A stretch of 64,000 nt of DNA from an uncultured Acidimicrobiales bacterium (GCA_963763885.1 CAVXQD010000007.1:495919-559918), one strand, 5' to 3'. Positions 2,040 through 23,741 are shown, numbered from the stretch's first letter. The notes: generated by a model not told the origin, from the letters alone. Program-made: numbers and translations.

Positions 2040-3097
2040 GCCTCGAAGTTGCGTGGTTCGCTGCACTCTGCGACGACGATTACGAATTTCTCGGAGTCCC
2101 AGACTCTGCGTTGCGCAGCACGTTCCAACACTGCGGACACATTGCTCGCCGCGCCGAAGCGCATGGCTTCGACAACATCCTGCTGCCGTCCGGATACGAC
2201 CTAGGCATCGACTCCACCGCGTTTGCTGCTGGCATCGCCACCCAAACCACCGACATCAACTTGTTGCTTGCGGTTCGCTGTGCAGAACTGTGGCCGCCGC
2301 AGTTGGCGCGCCAGCTTGCGACCATCGATCAGATGGCCAAGGGACGGCTGACCATCAACATCATCTCTTCCGACCTGCCCGGCGCACCGCTCGCCAGCGC
2401 GCCGCGCTACGCCCGATCCACCGAGATCATGCACGTGTTGCGGTCCTTGCTCAACGGCCAGCGGGTTGACCATGACGGCGAGTTCTACACGTTGCATGTA
2501 GACCCACCTCGCGCCTCTACGGTGCGCGGAACCTGTCCGCCGTTCTACTTCGGTGGGCTATCGGAGGACGCGCAGAACTGCGCAGCCGAAGCCGCTGACG
2601 TTTTCCTGATGTGGCCCGACACCATTCCCAACGTGCAAAAGGTGAAGGACGACATGACGGCGCGCGCCGCTCGGTTCAACCGCACGTTGTCGTTCGGTTA
2701 CCGGGTCCACGTGGTGGTGCGCGAAACCGAGTCCGCTGCACGTGACGCAGCCGATCGTTTGTTGTCGAAGCTGGATGACTCGGCCGGAGAAGCCATCAGG
2801 GCAAAGAGCCTTGACTCGCAATCCGTCGGCGTTCGTCGCCAAGCCGAACTGCGCCAGACAGCAGAGGCCAACGATGGTTACGTCGAAGAAAATCTGTGGA
2901 CCGGAATCGGTCGGGCACGTTCCGGATGCGGTGCGGCCATCGTGGGTGACCCAGACCAGGTGTTGGCCAAAATCCGGGCCTACGAGGCAATGGGCATCGA
3001 GGCGCTCATCCTCTCGGGCTATCCGCACCTCGACGAATGCGATCTGTTCGCCAAGTATGTCCTTCCAGAACTGGACCATGGCAAGCTGCACAAATGA
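2036..3097 (+). CDS. LLM-class (luciferase-like) flavin-dependent oxidoreductase
   Basis: ORF 1997..3097. MSLEVAWFAALCDDD...GFDNILLPSGY...LLAVRC...GRLTINIISSD resembles the SsuD/luciferase-like fold. ATGA overlap with the upstream stop at 2036-2039. Confidence 0.8.
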   Translation: MSLEVAWFAALCDDDYEFLGVPDSALRSTFQHCGHIARRAEAHGFDNILLPSGYDLGIDSTAFAAGIATQTTDINLLLAVRCAELWPPQLARQLATIDQMAKGRLTINIISSDLPGAPLASAPRYARSTEIMHVLRSLLNGQRVDHDGEFYTLHVDPPRASTVRGTCPPFYFGGLSEDAQNCAAEAADVFLMWPDTIPNVQKVKDDMTARAARFNRTLSFGYRVHVVVRETESAARDAADRLLSKLDDSAGEAIRAKSLDSQSVGVRRQAELRQTAEANDGYVEENLWTGIGRARSGCGAAIVGDPDQVLAKIRAYEAMGIEALILSGYPHLDECDLFAKYVLPELDHGKLHK

Positions 3098-3738
3098 GCA
3101 CCGCACCGCCCATGCCGCCCTCCATACCTCCGTCCACGCTCCACTGGCAAAATACCGACGTCGAAGTACACAAGGTCGTCGTCGGCCCCTACGACAACAA
3201 CGTGTTTACGGTCCGTTGCCGCGCCACCGGCGAAGCCATGCTCATCGATGCCGCCAACGAGCACGAGCAACTGCTGGCGTTGTGTCAGGACCTCGGGGTT
3301 CGTCAGGTAGTTGAGACGCACGGGCACTGGGACCACATCCAAGCGGTGACGCAAATCCGCGATGCCGGGTATCGGGTGTCGGTCACGGCTGCCGATGCGG
3401 GCATGCTCCCTAGCTACGACCTGATCCTGGAAGACGACGAGGTGCTTGAGGTCGGGCGGCTTCGCATCCGCACCATCCTCACGCCGGGCCACACCCGAGG
3501 TTCCATCTGCTTCCAGGTCGAAGGTACGCCGTTGTTGTTCAGCGGCGACACGCTGTTCCCCGGCGGTCCCGGCGCAACGAAGTTCGAGGGCAGCGACTTC
3601 CCCACCATCATCACGTCCATCGAGTCGCGGCTCTTCACGTTGCCGCCCGAGTTCATGGTGCTCCCCGGCCACGGCGTCGACACCACCATCGGAACGGAAC
3701 GCCCTCACCTCCAAGAGTGGGTCGACCGCGGCTGGTAA
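3094..3738 (+). CDS. MBL-fold metallo-hydrolase (glyoxalase II-like)
   Basis: ORF 3037..3738. Contains the THGHWDH metal motif and later PGHTRGS and GDTLFPGG. ATGA overlap with the upstream stop at 3094-3097. Confidence 0.85.
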   Translation: MSTAPPMPPSIPPSTLHWQNTDVEVHKVVVGPYDNNVFTVRCRATGEAMLIDAANEHEQLLALCQDLGVRQVVETHGHWDHIQAVTQIRDAGYRVSVTAADAGMLPSYDLILEDDEVLEVGRLRIRTILTPGHTRGSICFQVEGTPLLFSGDTLFPGGPGATKFEGSDFPTIITSIESRLFTLPPEFMVLPGHGVDTTIGTERPHLQEWVDRGW

Positions 3739-3807
3739 GTAACGAGCCCGTTCGGCCTGGACCGCTGCAGCCGGGCGGGTCCCAGTTCTGGCGTGAAGGA
3801 TGCTTGG

Positions 3808-3853
3808 GCAAACATGATGCAGCTGCATCGCGCTCCCGTTCCGTGGCGCTCCG
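3808..3853. repeat. IR-A (outer left), palindrome-core repeat
   Basis: Sequence gcaaacatGATGCAGCTGCATCgcgctcccgttccgtggcgctccg. The reverse complement of 6001-6047 matches 31 of the first 32 nt, then matches partially. Confidence 0.75.
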
Positions 3854-3984
3854 GTTCCATCGTGTCTCCGGTTGCATCGGCCCGGTCGATAGACCATTCG
3901 GCGGGAAGAACAGGCTCACACTTGGGTCGGGCCGTGCCGGATTGGCTATTCCACGTCCAGCGGGCTTGCACCGATTCAGCGGCA

Positions 3985-4045
3985 AAGGTTGTGCGGGCAA
4001 ACACGATGCAGCTGAATCGTGTTTGCAACTCACCGGGGACGGGCC
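3985..4045. repeat. IR-B (inner left), palindrome-core repeat
   Basis: Contains gcaaacacgatgcagctgaatcgtgtttgc (30-nt near-palindrome). It is about 79% identical (48/61 by hand alignment) to the reverse complement of 5861-5924. Confidence 0.7.
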
Positions 4046-4301
4046 AGTCCTCCACCGGCTTGCTCAACCAACGCACTAGACAGAAATTAAATCAGGAAAG
4101 TGATGAACTGAAAACCCGTCTCGCGCACTTGCGAAATTGGGGAAGCCCTCGCCGCAGACCTAACCAGGGCTGCGCGCCTGATCGCGGAGAGTCCAAAGAG
4201 CGAAGCGGACGGGGTTGAGTGCCTGGTTATACGTTCTCACCGTAAAGCCTCAGCACAATAAGGTGCACTGACGGAGCTTGTGGCGGGTCGGGCTCTTCGG
4301 G

Positions 4302-5789
4302 TCAGCCCTGTTGACAGTCGGGTTTGATCTCGGGTTTGATCTCGGGTTTGATCTCGCTGGGACGGGTCTTGTTGTGGAGGTGGCCCTGGACGGCAAGGTG
4401 GACGTCGAACGGCTCGCCGTAGCCGGTTGGTTCGATTGGTCCGGTGCGGGCGGCGGCGGTGTGGTTTGTGAGGTTGCTGGGATTGCCGGAACTGGGCCGA
4501 GAGTTGGTGAGGCCGGGCTTGGTGAATTCCAGCGCTCCGTTGGGGTTGCCAGCGATGACCCATTTGTTGCGATGGACGGCGTGGTGATGCATCGAGCACA
4601 GCAGGATGAGGTTCTGGGTCGTGGTCGTTCCGCCTCTGGAATGTTCATGGATGTGGTGCGCATGGAGCGAACCTCTGGCGCTACATCCTGGAAACCGGCA
4701 CGCTTGGTCGCGTTGGTTCAGCGCACGCCGTTGTGACGTGCTGGGCGCTCGTGGGTGTAACCGCTTATACGTGATTCGTTCATCGGCACTCTCACGAGTT
4801 ATGCCTCCTGCCCTGCGAGCGTGATGCGTTGCGATGATCACATCCGCGTCAGCCGCCAAGCGGTCGGCTTTGGTTGGTGAGATTGGTGGACCGCTTTCGA
4901 GCTCGTCACCGTCGGGGTAACGATGGACGACAACGAGTGGCCGACACGATGCAGCTGCATCGTGTCTCGACGACTCGCCGCCTCCGGTCTCGGGCGACTG
5001 GCCCGGTTGGGCCACCTGCGACAGGGTGATGTGGCCGGCCTCGACAAGGGCCACCAATGCATCGGCCCGCAACTGGTTGAACGGCACTTCGACCGCGACG
5101 ACGTTTACAGACTGCTGATCCGAGTCGGCAGCCTTCGCCTGAGCGCGGGCTCGACTGATCTCACGTTGCATCTGAGTTTCGACTGCGCGGCGCAGGGCTG
5201 TTCCAGCTTCGGCACTCAGCCGGGCACGGACCAGTACCGACCCGTCTTCCTGAGTGATGATCATCAACTCTCGGCGTTCGTGCTGGCGAACCTCATCATC
5301 CACATCGGCTGGACGGGATGCGCGTTCGACCTCGGCAACGAACCGCTCCAACTGTGGTGCCGTTGCGTGCAGAGCCATTTCGACCAGTTCCGCTTCAGAT
5401 CGGGGGCACACCACCCGGCACACAGCCCGCACCCGCGAATAAGACAACCGCCCCTTCGCGAACGTGGCGGCAAGCAGCGGGTACGACTCCAACACTCGAG
5501 CTACGTGCACATACTGTCGGGCGGTTACCAACGACACCCCAACGTGGCCGGACAGCCAGTGAGCCATGGACTTGCATTCCCAGCTTGCCCAGACCTGGCG
5601 GCGGTCGTACTCGGCGATGAGCTGGAACCAGCGTGCTGTTCCCGCGGCGAGGTCTGCCGCCACTTGGCACAGCTCGGCTTCCAATCGCTCGTCTGGCAAC
5701 GCGGCCAACGCAGCCCGATCATGCACAGAAGGGCCAGTCGCTGTCGGAGGCAGAGTGGGAGACGGAAGAACGCTGGACAACGTTGACAT
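4302..5789 (-). CDS. HNH endonuclease with N-terminal DUF222 domain (REP13E12-type protein)
   Basis: ORF 4302..5903, start taken at MSTLSS (ATG 5789). Has the DUF222-like ...ARWFQLIAEYDRRQVW...SMAHWLS... and a C-terminal HNH region CRFPGC...HAHHIHEHSRGG...LILLCSMHHHAVH. Confidence 0.85.
   Translation of the reverse strand: MSTLSSVLPSPTLPPTATGPSVHDRAALAALPDERLEAELCQVAADLAAGTARWFQLIAEYDRRQVWASWECKSMAHWLSGHVGVSLVTARQYVHVARVLESYPLLAATFAKGRLSYSRVRAVCRVVCPRSEAELVEMALHATAPQLERFVAEVERASRPADVDDEVRQHERRELMIITQEDGSVLVRARLSAEAGTALRRAVETQMQREISRARAQAKAADSDQQSVNVVAVEVPFNQLRADALVALVEAGHITLSQVAQPGQSPETGGGESSRHDAAASCRPLVVVHRYPDGDELESGPPISPTKADRLAADADVIIATHHARRAGGITRESADERITYKRLHPRAPSTSQRRALNQRDQACRFPGCSARGSLHAHHIHEHSRGGTTTTQNLILLCSMHHHAVHRNKWVIAGNPNGALEFTKPGLTNSRPSSGNPSNLTNHTAAARTGPIEPTGYGEPFDVHLAVQGHLHNKTRPSEIKPEIKPEIKPDCQQG
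4319..4354. repeat. 12-bp tandem repeat x3 (cgggtttgatct)
   Basis: Perfect triple repeat at the 3' end of the HNH CDS. It encodes EIKPEIKPEIKP on the minus strand. Confidence 0.9.
4943..4966. repeat. 24-bp perfect palindrome GACACGATGCAGCTGCATCGTGTC inside the HNH CDS
   Basis: Same GATGCAGCTGCATC core as the four flanking repeats. It is read in frame as ...RHDAAASC... Confidence 0.9.
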
Positions 5790-5860
5790 GCACCAATATT
5801 GACAAAGGGGTATGACAAAAATCGGGCGAACGAAGAAGATCAGCAAGGATTTCTTTCGCT

Positions 5861-5924
5861 GGCCCGACCCCAGTGAAATGCAAACGCGATGCAGCTGCAT
5901 CACGTTTGTTCGAGCAACCTAAGG
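5861..5924. repeat. IR-B' (inner right)
   Basis: Sequence ggcccgaccccagtgaaatgcaaacgcgatgcagctgcatcacgtttgttcgagcaacctaagg; inverted copy of 3985-4045. Confidence 0.7.
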
Positions 5925-6000
5925 CTTGAACGCGGGCCGAAACATCCGCTGCCGGCCGATGAAACCGAGGGAAACGAAGCAACCCGAGAAACGACGCGAA

Positions 6001-6047
6001 CGGAGTCGCGATGAATCGGGAGCGCGATGCAGCTGCATCCTGTTTGC
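6001..6047. repeat. IR-A' (outer right)
   Basis: Sequence cggagtcgcgatgaatcgggagcgcgatgcagctgcatcctgtttgc; inverted copy of 3808-3853. Confidence 0.75.
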
Positions 6048-6111
6048 GGGAACAAGCTTCAAAACCGACCCGGGGACGCGCCTGACCCCACCCCGCCTTG
6101 GACGCGAAACA

Positions 6112-6128
6112 GCGGCCCGGAAGGCCGC
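6112..6128 (-). terminator. possible intrinsic terminator of whiB
   Basis: GCGGCC / GGCCGC 6-bp stem with a 5-nt loop, followed on the minus strand by TGTTTCG, about 36 nt after the whiB stop. The stem is short and the U-tract weak. Confidence 0.35.
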
Positions 6129-6166
6129 CGCTTCAACTGTGATTCAGTTCTAGCAAGAAGGCAGGG

Positions 6167-6526
6167 TCAGCTGGCTTCGGCCATCTGGTCTTGCTGGTCG
6201 GCTTGCTGCTGCTGATCGCCTTGCGCCGTTGCAGGGCGACGGCGGGCGGCCCGACGGTTCTCTGCGCGCCACAGGCGACGCAGGACTCGGCGCTCGTCTT
6301 CGGTGGTTCCGCCCCACACGCCGTACTCCTGGTTGGTGGTAACGGCGAACTCGAGGCATTGGCCTTTGGCTGGGCATCCTGCGCAGTGCGACTTGGCAAG
6401 GGTGATTTGTTCAACCGCTTGGCCAGTGACACCAATCGGGAAAAAGATCTCCGGATTCAAGTCCCGGCAGACGGCGTCTACGCGCCAATCCAGATCGTTC
6501 CAGCGCTCGTGAAGCATTGTGAGCAT
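6167..6526 (-). CDS. whiB: WhiB-family transcriptional regulator (Wbl) with Gln/Asp-rich C-terminal tail
   Basis: Four Cys in the Wbl pattern (C...CAGCPAKGQC), the G[V]WGG turn (EYGVWGGTTEDERR) and a basic tail. Confidence 0.9.
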   Translation of the reverse strand: MLTMLHERWNDLDWRVDAVCRDLNPEIFFPIGVTGQAVEQITLAKSHCAGCPAKGQCLEFAVTTNQEYGVWGGTTEDERRVLRRLWRAENRRAARRRPATAQGDQQQQADQQDQMAEAS

Positions 6527-6870
6527 CAGTGTTCTCCCTGCCGGTCTCCGGCGTGTGTGGTGACGTTGATGGTGGTGGTGTTGCTGGTGATGCGGTCCTG
6601 ATGTTGTTGCGCTCGCGAGAGATTAAAAACCGACTGCCATGTGTGGCCGTAGTCACTTTCTTTCCCCGAATTTCTTCACACACGGTGATGAACTTTCAGG
6701 TACTCGAAATTTCACTTTCGGCCCGATCAGTACTGTACCGAGCGGTCAAGTTATCTGGGAAGAGGCTCCTTCGAGAATCTCTCCAACAGATGAAGACTAT
6801 CGGGATGACAGATCCAATGAGACAGGGTTCACACCGGTAGATAGCTCAACGACCACGGAACGTGGGAGGT

Positions 6871-8730
6871 TCAGCGGCCCGCTGCAGCGGCTGCAGCTCG
6901 CTGGGCTTCGCCGACGGCATCGGCGACAAGGTCCAATCCGGCATCCCAGAAACCTGGGTCTGCGAGGTCACAGCCCACGCTTGTCGCAAGTTGCTCTGGG
7001 GAGACCGAGCCGCCCAGCGCCAGCATCTGCTCGTAGCGACCCACGAAGGACTCCCCCGCGTCGAGGTAGCGCTTGTACACAGACAACGCCAACAGCTGGC
7101 CAAACGCGTATGCGTAGACATAGCCAGGCACGTGGATGAAATGCGGCACGTAGCTCCACCAGGTGCGGTAACCCGGCGTGATCTCCACCGTGTCGCCAAG
7201 CAACTCTTCCTGGGTGGCTTGCCAGTTGGCGTTGAACGACTCGATGCTCAACTCGCCATCGGCACGCCGGGCCAGATGGCAGCGATCCTCAAACTTCCAC
7301 ATCGCAACCTGACGAAATACTGTGGCGATGTGACCTTGCACATGCTCGGCCAAAAGAGAGAGCCGTTCCGCGGGATCCGTGCTGATGGCAAGGAGTCGGC
7401 CGAACGTAACTTCTTCAGCGAACACCGATGCAGTTTCCGCGACGGTCAGCGGAACACTGTGGTGATAGATGCCCTGGCCCCGAGAAAGCTCGAAGTGCAC
7501 ACCGTGGCCCATCTCGTGAGCGAGCGTCAGCACGTCGTTACGAGTGCCGCTGTAGTTGACAAAGATGTGCGAGTGCGTCGATGGCACATTGGGCGAACAG
7601 AACGCGCCACCGCGCTTGCCGCTGGTAATCGGTGCATGAACCCGATTGTCTTTGAAGAACGCGGCAGCGTGACTGGCCATGGTCGGCGAGAACGACGCAA
7701 ACGCGCCCACTACCTCGTTGGCAGCATCGTTCCAGTCGATGGAGGATTCGTCGACCAACGCCAGCGGAGCAAAGCGGTCGTAGTCGGCCAGCTTCTCAAG
7801 CCCCAGCAGATCCGCTTTGGTTCGGTACCAGTCGCGGGCGATGTCGAACCGATTGGAAACCGCTTCGATAAGTGCGCGTACCGAATCGTCTGAGGCCTGA
7901 TTTGCCAGGTTGCGTGAACTGATCCACGTGGGATAACCGCGGAGGCGGTCCTCGTGTGCCTTGTCAGCCATCAGCGTGTTGTAAATGTACGAACGAGTTC
8001 GCAAGCCCGGAGCAAGTGCTGTGGTGAAGGCCTCGGCAGCAACTCGACGATGGTCTCGGTCAGCGCTCATCAGATGCGAGAACACCAATTCGTACGGTAT
8101 TGGCCCGTCGCCCAGATCCACGGTGAGCGGTCCAAGTTGCTCGTCGTACAGACGGGTCCATGCCGAAGCCCCGGTCACTGACTTCTCGGCCAACAGCCGC
8201 TCTTCGATTTCGGACAACAGATACGGGCGAGCTGCCCGCACCGTTTCCAGATAGTGCGCACAGAATTCCAAGCGGGCATCGGCGATCAGCGGTTGGGCGT
8301 GGTCATCGGACACCGCTGCCCACTCAAGGTCGATGAACCGCAACCGATTTCCGATGTCCGTCGAGCGTTCGGTGATCGATGCGACAAGCGCACCTTTCGC
8401 TTCGTCGATGGAGTCCGTCGATGCATCCAGTTGCGCATACGAGCCAGCCCGGCCAAGCAGGTCGTGAATCCGGCCACCCAGCACCATCAGCCCGGCCAGG
8501 CCAGTTGCGTCCAACTCGGCAACCCGGCCGCGCTGCAGTTCAGCCTCGTCCGCCAGTCGTGCCGCGAGATCAAGGAGCCGGTGCAAGTTCACAGCGGGGG
8601 CAACTGCGTTATCGAACGGCGGTACATCTTCCGGCGAGTCGTCAACAAGCATCCGGAGGTCCCACACGGTCTTGTCCAAGTCCATCGAATCAAGCGTGAG
8701 GTTCGGCCGGGAGTTCTGGAGATCGGTCAC
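6871..8730 (-). CDS. M3-family oligoendopeptidase (PepF-like)
   Basis: 619-aa ORF with the zinc motif HEMGHGVH and length and layout typical of the oligoendopeptidase F family. Confidence 0.85.
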   Translation of the reverse strand: MTDLQNSRPNLTLDSMDLDKTVWDLRMLVDDSPEDVPPFDNAVAPAVNLHRLLDLAARLADEAELQRGRVAELDATGLAGLMVLGGRIHDLLGRAGSYAQLDASTDSIDEAKGALVASITERSTDIGNRLRFIDLEWAAVSDDHAQPLIADARLEFCAHYLETVRAARPYLLSEIEERLLAEKSVTGASAWTRLYDEQLGPLTVDLGDGPIPYELVFSHLMSADRDHRRVAAEAFTTALAPGLRTRSYIYNTLMADKAHEDRLRGYPTWISSRNLANQASDDSVRALIEAVSNRFDIARDWYRTKADLLGLEKLADYDRFAPLALVDESSIDWNDAANEVVGAFASFSPTMASHAAAFFKDNRVHAPITSGKRGGAFCSPNVPSTHSHIFVNYSGTRNDVLTLAHEMGHGVHFELSRGQGIYHHSVPLTVAETASVFAEEVTFGRLLAISTDPAERLSLLAEHVQGHIATVFRQVAMWKFEDRCHLARRADGELSIESFNANWQATQEELLGDTVEITPGYRTWWSYVPHFIHVPGYVYAYAFGQLLALSVYKRYLDAGESFVGRYEQMLALGGSVSPEQLATSVGCDLADPGFWDAGLDLVADAVGEAQRAAAAAAGR

Positions 8731-9447: not shown

Positions 9448-10536
9448 TCAGCCTGCAGGCGGAGGGGAAAGGGGGCTGACGTCGGTTCCAACCACGTAGG
9501 TCGCTACGAAGCCTGCATGGTCACTTCCCGGAATCACGACGTCACGCAACGTCAGCGGCGCAATTGGTCCGGAGTAGAACGCGTGGTCCAGGCGCATGAA
9601 CCGCGGTACCAGCCGCATGTCACGCGGCCACGAGGCAGAGAGTCCAAACCCCATTGCTTCGTGAGTGCTGCGCAGTCCGTTGTCGAACAGCTGACCGGTG
9701 ACGGGCAGCCATCGCGTGCCGTTGAGGTCACCCGCGATGATCAGCGGAGTTCCGCCGACCAACGTTTTCTCCGAACGTGCACGCAGTGCCTCGTCTTGCA
9801 AGATCCGGACCGTGTTCACAAACGCAGTGTCGGAGCCCTTTACCGTCAACGGAACCGGATGTGCACCGATGATCCGCACCGTGGTTCCACCATCAAGCGT
9901 CACGTCGACGGCGAGGAGTGGGCACCCCGGACTAGCTGACCCGCTGACGGCAAGTTGCCGGGGTTGGTTGGCAAACTTCAACCGCGAGAAAATGACGGTT
10001 CGCCACGTCCCTTCGGCACCGTTCTCTGCGAGGTACGGGTACGCGTTGAGCGCGCCGGACCGACGCAGTTGCGCTTCGATGGGTTTCGCCAATTCATGGA
10101 AGACGAGGACATCGGCGTCCTGCTGAAGCACTTGGCGAGAAAAGTCCGTTTCGTTGTCGACATAGACGTTTGCTGAGAAGACGCGAACAGTCCGAGCGGA
10201 GTCGATCACCCCCGAAGCGAAGGCCGCCGCTGGTTGAGAACGAACTGCCGGATACACGCTGAACCCGTAGACGATGCACAACAACAGCGACATTGCGAAA
10301 CGGATGGGGTGACCGCGCCACGCCGTGATCGCCAACGCAAACCACACAGGGAGCAACGTCAGCGGGAGCGCCGCCTGCGCAAGCACCGCATACGTGGAGC
10401 CACGCCAACCAATCAGCCGGGTAAAGACCGTGATTGCACCGGCCACGATGATGATTGCGGCCAGGACATCAAGGAGCGACGCTCCCACCGAGTCCTCGGA
10501 TCCGCCCCTGGATCGGGTGGAGCGGAGCGACGGCAT
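9448..10536 (-). CDS. membrane-anchored endonuclease/exonuclease/phosphatase (EEP) family protein
   Basis: N-terminal TM helices, then an EEP-like core (VFSANVY..., AGDLNGT, GSDHAGF). Confidence 0.7.
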   Translation of the reverse strand: MPSLRSTRSRGGSEDSVGASLLDVLAAIIIVAGAITVFTRLIGWRGSTYAVLAQAALPLTLLPVWFALAITAWRGHPIRFAMSLLLCIVYGFSVYPAVRSQPAAAFASGVIDSARTVRVFSANVYVDNETDFSRQVLQQDADVLVFHELAKPIEAQLRRSGALNAYPYLAENGAEGTWRTVIFSRLKFANQPRQLAVSGSASPGCPLLAVDVTLDGGTTVRIIGAHPVPLTVKGSDTAFVNTVRILQDEALRARSEKTLVGGTPLIIAGDLNGTRWLPVTGQLFDNGLRSTHEAMGFGLSASWPRDMRLVPRFMRLDHAFYSGPIAPLTLRDVVIPGSDHAGFVATYVVGTDVSPLSPPPAG

Positions 10537-23222: not shown

Positions 23223-23741
23223 ATGCCCGGCCTCGAAGACCTATACCGAGAGATCATCCTCGATCACTACAACCGTCCGCGCAACAAGGGCGAGCTACCA
23301 CCACCTGCGCATCGCACCGATGGCATGAACCCCTTGTGCGGCGACGAGATTGCGGTGTACCTGGTGGTTGACGGCAACACCGAAGACGCAATCGTTACCG
23401 ACATCTCTATCGGCGGTCAGGGCTGTTCCATCAGCCAGGCTTCGGCCTCCATGATGACCACCGCCGTCAAGGGCAAAAAGGTCAGCGAGGCTCGCGAAAT
23501 CATCACCGCGTTCAAGTCGATGATGGGCATCCAAGACGCTGCACACGGCGCGGCGGCCGAAACTGGAATCGACGACTCGGCGCACGATCACGACCACGAC
23601 GATGCAGCGGAATCACCTGCCGTCAAACTTGGCGATCTCGAAGCGCTCCGCGGCGTGGTGAAGTTCCCCGTGCGAATCAAGTGCGCAACCCTGGCATGGA
23701 ACACCATGGGCCAAGGGCTCGACGAACTCGCTGGCGCATAA
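23223..23741 (+). CDS. sufU: SUF-system NifU-like scaffold/sulfur acceptor SufU
   Basis: LYREIILDHYNRPRN...NPLCGDEI...GQGCSISQASASMM...RIKCATLAW. Confidence 0.9.
   Translation: MPGLEDLYREIILDHYNRPRNKGELPPPAHRTDGMNPLCGDEIAVYLVVDGNTEDAIVTDISIGGQGCSISQASASMMTTAVKGKKVSEAREIITAFKSMMGIQDAAHGAAAETGIDDSAHDHDHDDAAESPAVKLGDLEALRGVVKFPVRIKCATLAWNTMGQGLDELAGA

Follow-up and report, generated by a model that had tools for sequence, protein, structure and literature searches.

Introduction

Why should a nuclease gene be flanked, and interrupted, by copies of one short palindrome? The question is raised by a stretch of 64,000 nucleotides from an uncultured Acidimicrobiales bacterium (GCA_963763885.1 CAVXQD010000007.1:495919-559918), referred to here as the window, in which a gene for a DUF222-HNH endonuclease lies among five copies of the 14-bp palindrome GATGCAGCTGCATC. 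An earlier note on this DNA had offered two possibilities, namely that the palindromes are the ends of an element or that they are recognition sites of the nuclease. The results presented below favor recognition: GATGCAGCTGCATC is probably the cognate double-stranded DNA site of the cassette's own DUF222-HNH nuclease, and a role as simple ends is disfavored, because several mobile relatives of the cassette carry no downstream copy. Since the site occurs upstream of the gene, inside its coding sequence and, here, also downstream, the nuclease would be directed to its own locus.

Genes of the DUF222-HNH (13E12) type have been known since the first Mycobacterium tuberculosis genome, and we know of no biochemical function or DNA target for them. 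What is already established is the gene family itself, its insertion-like behavior and its regulation by DNA damage. In M. tuberculosis, the DUF222 (13E12) genes are damage-inducible and controlled by LexA and RecA-NDp (PMC3381160), and both gene conversion and inversions have hotspots there (PMC13061034; PMC13157036). The searchable literature yielded no description of a cognate palindrome both embedded in the gene and upstream of it, of its co-variation with the protein or of a ParB-like reading of the DUF222 domain.

Five Palindromes Around and Within One Gene

When at most one mismatch was allowed, GATGCAGCTGCATC was found to start at 3816, 4005, 4948, 5888 and 6026, with no other match in the 64 kb, exactly as the earlier note had claimed. 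Dinucleotide-preserving shuffles of the window gave a mean of 0.02 matches, and none of 100 shuffles reached five. The copy at 4005 is the variant GATGCAGCTGAATC, with one mismatch. Four of the copies lie in two nested pairs of inverted repeats (IRs), which also proved to be real. The outer arms, IR-A (3781..3857, plus strand) and IR-A' (5998..6074, minus strand), are 77 nt long and 73% complementary, and within their core only 1 of 31 positions differs between 3808-3838 and the reverse complement of 6017-6047. The inner arms, IR-B (3986..4047, plus strand) and IR-B' (5859..5920, minus strand), are 62 nt long and 81% complementary.

A unit alignment shows that the four outer copies are parts of ~70-110-nt units of two subtypes, with two direct units on each side of the gene and the left side inverted relative to the right. 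IR-A corresponds to unit U1 (palindrome at 3816-3829) and IR-A' to unit U5 (palindrome at 6026-6039); IR-B corresponds to unit U2, in which GATGCAGCTGAATC at 4005-4018 is centered in a 30-bp near-palindrome (3997-4026; single-stranded DNA fold z = -2.9), and IR-B' to unit U4, in which the palindrome (5888-5901) has its center ~105 nt 5' of the start codon. The 26-nt flank of the inner units is found at only two places in the window. The order IR-A, IR-B, gene, IR-B', IR-A' proposed previously therefore describes the window correctly, but it is not the architecture of the family: flank similarity extending beyond ~18 nt is confined to the window, which marks the long nested repeats as an elaboration of this one locus.

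The third copy sits within the gene itself, a position that the earlier note had not registered. At 4948-4961, it forms the center of a perfect 24-bp palindrome (4943..4966) in the coding sequence. This part of the gene specifies the linker that joins DUF222 to HNH, and the palindrome is translated there as D-A-A-A-S (residues 277-281). When the repeats were folded, the extended copies 2, 3 and 4 proved able to form 10-11-bp hairpins (z = -2.2 to -2.9 relative to shuffles), whereas shuffles folded just as well as the outer copies. An intrinsic terminator test flagged one of the five copies, and an Rfam search of 3000-7000 at permissive E-values gave zero matches.

A relative with two mismatches, GATGCAGCGGAATC, occurs at 23601-23614. 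It combines a type-1 half-site, as in the window's palindrome, with a half-site of the type-2 variant introduced below, and is the reverse complement of the variant found at locus L127. It lies inside an IscU/SufU-like open reading frame (ORF), where it reads D-A-A-E-S. We considered it as a marker of a second element and rejected this, given the IscU/SufU-like ORF and the absence of a second DUF222 gene from the window; it is probably a chance occurrence.

An Upstream and an Internal Copy Are Conserved

Is this arrangement peculiar to the window? The pattern rests on 11 loci for which DNA was available; at the nine complete type-1 loci, the proteins are 42-64% identical to that of the window. 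Loci L001, L125, L126 and L127 come from the metagenome-assembled genomes (MAGs) GCA_043756315.1, JANNBN01, JANMEI01 and JAYVSS01. An internal copy, either the same 14-mer or a variant with one or two base changes, is present at all nine type-1 loci, 630-921 nt past the start. An upstream copy is present at seven of the nine, 47-140 nt 5' of the start, and four have one at the 3' end or beyond it; L003, L004, L125 and L126 have upstream and internal copies without a downstream one. The conserved plan is one copy 5' of the promoter and one inside the gene, the internal copy being the most conserved.

The same signature can be read in the proteins. The peptide D-[AS]-A-A-S occurs in the linker of 22 of the 26 closest protein hits, and six of the 26 also end in D-[AS]-A-A-S, where the reading frame runs through the 3' copy. 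The peptide, or M-Q-L-H from frame 2, is also seen in several spurious N-terminal extensions. The linker that holds the internal copy is hypervariable; the copy falls in alignment columns that differ among subclades, and its codon combination has a probability of only 0.001-0.01 under each gene's own codon usage. In the structure model, the linker (residues 258-301) is disordered, with a predicted local distance difference test score (pLDDT) of <50. A site that shifts its position within a disordered, hypervariable linker and is written in improbable codons points to selection on the DNA sequence. On the same grounds, we rejected conservation for the sake of the protein.

The palindrome is tied to DUF222 genes and is not a genome-wide repetitive extragenic palindromic (REP) element, an outcome that would have spoken against its association with the nuclease. 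There are 28 sites in 28.9 kb at the 11 genes (0.97 per kb) versus 4 in 202 kb of flanking DNA (0.02 per kb), and neither the 64 kb of the window nor these flanks hold a dispersed population of solo copies like that of REPs or miniature inverted-repeat transposable elements (MITEs). Among the matches listed in a pattern scan of viral contigs, there were single chance hits only. Protein-guided scans returned only three loci in GTDB genomes, two short metagenome loci and none in viral contigs. We also asked whether the palindromes delimit exchangeable domain cassettes and rejected this, since the identities of the N- and C-terminal halves are correlated (r = 0.94) and no mosaic pairs were seen.

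A few copies are found farther from the genes. At L130, extra palindromes at 5832 and 8973, 4.2 kb and 1.0 kb 5' of the DUF222 gene, bracket an alpha/beta hydrolase, a PIN-toxin pair, a metallophosphatase and an NTP_transf_6 gene, so that L130 could be a larger island subdivided by sites. At L001, a solo perfect copy (21292) is 9.7 kb away from the DUF222 gene and falls within a Glyoxalase_4 gene, in the frame D-A-A-A-S; separately, a glyoxalase gene is the immediate downstream neighbor of the cassette at L134.

Site Variants and Protein Lineage

The palindrome is not the same in every lineage. The proteins of L145 and L147 (type 2) are 35-37% identical to that of the window, and these loci have a perfect palindrome of another sequence, GATTCCGCGGAATC, placed upstream (-105, -59) and mid-gene (+591, +585). 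L136 has two mid-gene copies of GTGTTCCGCGGAACAC, and L127 has a hybrid, GATTCCGCTGCATC, in four identical copies whose palindromic symmetry has become poor. The variants are usually uniform within a locus, as at L003, L004, L127 and L145. The G-to-T variant at position 4 of the type-1 site never changes strand relative to the gene, in cases that are not all independent of one another. The candidate recognition helix of the protein also differs: TARQYV is its sequence in type-1 proteins, and most proteins with other site types have AARE[HK]V. The half-site positions that distinguish the site types are 4 and 6.

How far does the feature extend? Peptides that an in-frame palindrome with the pattern G(A/T)T(G/T)C(A/C)G|C..C could encode (DAAAS, DSAES, VSAET and similar) occur in 55 of the 120 best homologues versus 4 expected from shuffling. 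In a Rhodococcus-type set, on the other hand, 7 of 120 proteins have the signature versus 4.6 expected, which is no enrichment. The feature thus belongs to a large, Acidimicrobiia-centered branch of the DUF222-HNH family. In an Arthrobacter homologue, only an unrelated 14-mer was found, compatible with chance. That the feature is universal in DUF222-HNH genes was rejected on account of the unenriched Rhodococcus-type set, this Arthrobacter gene and a Rhodococcus plasmid gene. Within the branch, GTTTCCGCGGAAAC-like palindromes are predicted mid-gene and upstream for members with linkers of the V-S-A-E-T or V-P-A-G-T kind.

The Encoded Protein and Its Host

The gene at 4302..5789 (minus strand) starts at the ATG at 5789, not at an upstream GTG, and encodes 495 aa with full-length homologues of 42-64% identity. 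Its assignment as a DUF222-HNH endonuclease was borne out. DUF222 is not listed in the full-length Pfam scan at E <= 0.01; when residues 23-260 were scanned alone, PF02720 scored 42.1 bits against a cut-off of 24.4 (E = 9e-11). The C-terminal HNH domain (PF01844) scored 27.3 bits against a cut-off of 21.4, and the HNH residues C369, H378, H379, N393, C398, H401, H402 and H406 are invariant across 23 homologues. The HNH domains nearest to it are those of IscB, Cas8-HNH and McrA.

The N-terminal DUF222 domain is modeled as all-helical with a pLDDT of 93, and the only consistent Protein Data Bank (PDB) matches of this model are ParB and the DNA-binding domain of Noc (probability 0.96-1.0, with weak E-values of 0.15-0.8). 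The resemblance is weak and should be taken as a lead, not a result. Within the DUF222 domain, the stretch HWLSGHVGVSLVTARQYVHVAR bears the signature of a classical helix-turn-helix, and VGVSLVTARQYV fits it as well.

No transposase class (DDE, HUH, serine or tyrosine recombinase) was detected in the protein by Pfam, NCBIfam or PHROGs; only DUF222 and HNH were found, and in PHROGs HNH was the only match. The PADLOC defense-system models did not match the window protein, the type-2 protein P0029 or the 127-aa neighbor, and the BFVD matches are uncharacterized phage proteins. A search of plasmid nucleotide sequences gave no match. There is one DUF222 gene per locus, the window included. As a further observation, the 3' end of the gene contains three tandem 12-nt units (4318..4356; TCGGGTTTGATC) that encode EIKP repeats at the C-terminus of the protein, and relatives have other short C-terminal repeats, e.g., NEPLA and ETPGN.

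The window protein has no record as an exact sequence; the top homologue on record is 62% identical, and a Rhodococcus member is ~29% identical. All near relatives are from metagenomes or Acidimicrobiia MAGs, and the flanking housekeeping genes have 90% identical homologues as well as others, of lower identity, that are labeled Acidimicrobiales. Because both the close relatives and the homologues of the flanking genes belong to Acidimicrobiia or Acidimicrobiales, the gene is non-mycobacterial.

A Promoter Motif of the DNA-Damage Type

Upstream of the gene (5796..5817, minus strand) lies a PafBC (RecA-NDp)-type promoter motif, composed of TGTCAT (5817-5812), 10 nt, CAATAT (5801-5796), 6 nt and the ATG. 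The general form (t)TGTC(A/G)(T/C)-N10-(c)A(t)a(a/c)T-N6-ATG is present at all nine complete type-1 loci and in the fragment L128; the motif was noted in the window and at L001, L003, L004, L125, L126, L127, L128, L130 and L134. It fits the mycobacterial PafBC/RecA-NDp consensus tGTCgg(N10)tA(N3)T, in which GTC is strictly conserved (PMC8635444). The DUF222-HNH gene would accordingly, judging from a motif match only, be under a promoter of the DNA-damage type, and the motif suggests that PafBC-type control extends to Acidimicrobiia. Together with the N6-ATG spacing, it places the predicted transcript start near 5789, so that the mRNA would be leaderless.

The type-2 loci and L136 have CGAACATGTGTTCG at or over the annotated start instead (L145, ~9962-9975; L147, 4296-4310; L136, 2995-3009), a palindrome that matches the LexA box (SOS box) of actinobacteria. 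At L147 (4302-7337), the DUF222-HNH gene lies directly 5' of recA and recX. The upstream palindromes themselves are often followed by a short T-run.

The Cassette Is a Mobile Insertion

The region is a discrete, horizontally mobile insertion of ~2.34 kb (3763..6098), with its left junction within 3739-3762 and its right junction within 6085-6103. To the left lies a host gene for a metallo-beta-lactamase (MBL)-fold hydrolase (3037..3738, plus strand; Pfam Lactamase_B), which has 90% identical homologues in the empty-site contigs. Immediately to the right of the cassette is a terminator-like hairpin (6106..6134) from the original spacer, kept in the empty sites, and then a host gene for a WhiB-family regulator (6167..6526, minus strand; Pfam Whib, E = 1.4e-21; also supported by synteny).

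Presence/absence polymorphism close to the boundaries drawn earlier was found in two related Acidimicrobiales lineages (L138-L141 and L142-L143), in which the MBL and WhiB genes are just 53-61 nt apart. In L138-L141, the gene order of the window is kept (luciferase-like monooxygenase, MBL hydrolase on the plus strand, WhiB on the minus strand, M3 peptidase), and in L142-L143, the MBL-WhiB pair alone is shared, with a different gene at each outer side. The flanks of L138-L141 are ~78% identical at the nucleotide level, and a blastn alignment takes the window from 3738 straight to 6231. When the insertion is removed, the window aligns with L138 and L139 across the original spacer and the terminator-like hairpin. 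An excision scan gave equally good solutions throughout both junction ranges, and a 5-bp duplication, TGGAC (3758-3762 / 6099-6103), is one of many equally scoring placements. The outer palindromes lie 53 and 59 nt from the cassette ends, and the arms that contain them end ~20-40 nt from the left junction (IR-A) and ~10-30 nt from the right junction (IR-A').

Movement is seen elsewhere in the family. The cassette of L126 is placed between two genes that are adjacent in L003, and the location occupied in L003 and L004 is empty in L126. Between L003 and L004, homology resumes 5 nt before the upstream palindrome, and L001 is without a 130-nt segment, including the upstream palindrome, that is found in its close relative L125.

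Several further features of the cassettes were noted. The empty counterpart of the L126 insertion in L003 (2952-3010) holds three tandem copies of a ~17-nt motif, TTGAACGCNGTTGCAAT. The flanks of L001 and L125 are 89-92% identical and their DUF222-HNH genes just 82-83%, so this cassette is evolving faster than the DNA around it. A 127-aa ORF with no family match accompanies the DUF222-HNH gene in L003 (11504-11887), L004 (11471-11854) and L126 (~8034-8449); we looked for this traveling gene in the window and rejected its presence there, as it is absent. The 560 nt of non-coding DNA between the stop codon and the left cassette end of the window contain an A+T-rich stretch, agacagaaattaaatcaggaaagtgatgaactgaaaac (4075-4110), which is unusual for a genome of ~63% G+C.

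Weighing the Explanations

Several observations weigh against a cognate site of the nuclease. It would seem self-destructive for a nuclease to cut within its own gene. A downstream copy is missing from several mobile relatives, and the empty sites (L138, L139, L142 and L003) have no copy or half-copy of the palindrome, so the copies are not simple transposon ends; L001 has the internal copy alone at its cassette. The Rhodococcus plasmid homologue has no palindrome and the Rhodococcus-type set, as noted above, is not enriched for the peptide signature. The co-variation of site sequence with protein lineage is confounded with phylogeny, few independent clades having DNA, and site types beyond types 1 and 2 and that of L136 are inferred from peptide signatures only. 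Furthermore, the centers of the upstream palindromes range from -41 to -133 nt with no helical phasing, which speaks against a classical promoter-proximal operator. Because the upstream palindrome is 5' of the promoter at a variable distance, it lies outside the predicted transcript and is not a phased operator.

Could the long inverted repeats and their palindromes instead be the terminal inverted repeats of a cut-and-paste transposon, with the DUF222-HNH protein as its transposase? The cassette is clearly mobile, the arms of the window reach within ~10-40 nt of the junctions, with the palindromes just inside, and the TGGAC duplication is one possible reading of the junctions. Yet at 78% flank identity many other placements of the junctions score equally well, the long inverted flanks are found in the window only, and homologous cassettes, having no comparable repeats, have moved all the same (L003/L004 and L126, without a downstream copy). 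End function would also leave the strong conservation of the internal copy unexplained, no known transposase fold accompanies DUF222 and HNH, and the empty sites are without the palindrome; we regard a transposon of this kind as unlikely. A little less likely still is that the palindrome is the operator of a host regulator, e.g., a stress or damage repressor of the Acidimicrobiia, which silences a potentially toxic nuclease gene whose own protein is blind to the site. Upstream and internal copies that bracket a promoter are familiar from lac O2 and gal OI, and every locus examined has a PafBC motif or an SOS box. However, the site accompanies the cassette to other loci and genomes and changes with the protein clade. 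It is missing from other genes in the 64 kb and nearly so (four copies) from the 202 kb of flanks, where a global regulator would be expected to have further targets.

The palindromes might also act only as structures (terminator or insulator hairpins, mRNA-stability elements or REP-like cruciforms) that have no sequence-specific reader. The hairpins of the extended copies 2, 3 and 4, the T-runs that often follow upstream copies and the one terminator-like copy would fit such a role. It is nevertheless quite improbable: the exact 14-mer is kept, with no compensatory change, across proteins 42-64% identical, L127 keeps four identical poor palindromes, the folding of the outer copies does not exceed that of shuffles, Rfam has no match and the upstream copy is not expected to be transcribed. 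Least credible of all, to our minds, is a reading in which another recombinase uses the palindrome for attachment or crossover and the DUF222 genes are its conserved landing pad. The model for it is the serine integrase of phage phiRv1, which uses a site inside the mycobacterial REP13E12, and the sites of serine integrases do have dyad symmetry. Each cassette, however, has several copies, some of them non-coding, and the gene tables list no integrase or prophage beside any locus; a landing pad also gives no reason for the upstream copy or for the co-variation with the protein.

A Model for the Probable Cognate Site

How might a nuclease that recognizes its own gene behave? If GATGCAGCTGCATC is the cognate site, the DUF222 domain, as the putative binder, would recognize the palindrome, probably as a dimer, and the internal site would be accommodated in the dispensable linker between DUF222 and HNH. 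Upon DNA damage, the nuclease would be induced and may nick or cut at or next to its sites. The breaks would then provoke local recombination: site-bearing segments would be copied, as the duplicated and inverted units of the window may exemplify, gene conversion would occur, and the cassette would now and then relocate. The uniformity of variants within each locus, together with the unit flanks shared in the window, suggests copying between sites. In addition, the occupied upstream and internal sites, which bracket the promoter, could feed back on expression by looping or by acting as a roadblock.

These two consequences, recombination and autoregulation, are mutually compatible, and we consider them about equally likely. 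Recombination would fit the conserved HNH domain, the uniform variants per locus, the duplicated and inverted units and the behavior of 13E12 genes as hotspots. Autoregulation would fit the upstream and internal sites on either side of the promoter, by analogy with lac O2, gal OI and the I-TevI operator, which are precedents for it. In its fullest form, the proposal is one of a selfish element: a ParB-like reader would recognize the palindrome in its own gene and promoter, and damage-induced breaks would drive conversion, duplication, inversion and relocation. We put this forward tentatively, as a possibility that is rather unlikely to be correct in all its parts.

Comparison with Known Systems

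The earlier note had linked the gene to the mycobacterial REP13E12 repeats. The link stands at the level of the protein family only, because the host belongs to the Acidimicrobiales and the Rhodococcus-type branch is not enriched for the palindrome signature. REP13E12/13E12 of M. tuberculosis has the same DUF222-HNH architecture (PF02720 plus PF01844), and is likewise insertion-like with presence/absence polymorphism. Its published damage-type control has a counterpart here in promoter motifs, which are PafBC/RecA-NDp-like at the type-1 loci and an SOS box at L145, L147 and L136. On the other hand, REP13E12 is a ~1.4-kb repeat with several copies per mycobacterial genome, whereas here there is one copy in 64 kb, and an embedded and upstream palindrome has not been described for 13E12 in the searchable literature.

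Among characterized DNA-binding systems, ParB-parS and Noc with its binding site (NBS) are helix-turn-helix proteins that bind palindromes of 14-16 bp. Here, as with parS, a 14-bp palindrome, extendable to ~30 bp, is clustered at the gene of its predicted reader, and in Bacillus subtilis a parS site lies within the spo0J coding sequence. The window protein differs from ParB and Noc in that the fold match is weak and DUF222 is fused to an HNH nuclease, and there is no evidence of a ParB CTPase domain or a ParA partner.

I-TevI, a homing endonuclease, represses its own promoter through an operator that resembles its homing site. It provides a precedent for a selfish, site-specific nuclease that binds its own gene without destroying itself. 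I-TevI, however, is a GIY-YIG enzyme of a phage intron with a defined homing site, whereas the window gene is free-standing and carries a copy in its coding sequence; an intact site in the empty allele, as expected for a homing endonuclease, was not seen in any of the four empty sites listed above. REPtrons, in which a REP-associated tyrosine transposase (RAYT) is paired with REPs, and the subterminal hairpins of IS200/IS605 resemble the window as a nuclease gene bracketed by inverted short palindromes. REPs, in contrast, are dispersed in hundreds, whereas the palindrome of the window is confined to the cassette, the enzyme is HNH rather than HUH and the conserved copy is internal.

Significance

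For a large branch of the DUF222-HNH family, the palindromes offer a candidate for the sequence that is recognized. Two site types have been verified in DNA sequence and more are predicted, and every type goes with its own protein clade. The defined layout, with one upstream and one internal copy, makes binding, cleavage and autoregulation directly testable, and the findings point to where analogous mycobacterial sites could be sought. If the selfish-element proposal is true, it would offer a mechanism for the recombination hotspots, so far unexplained, at the 13E12 genes of M. tuberculosis.

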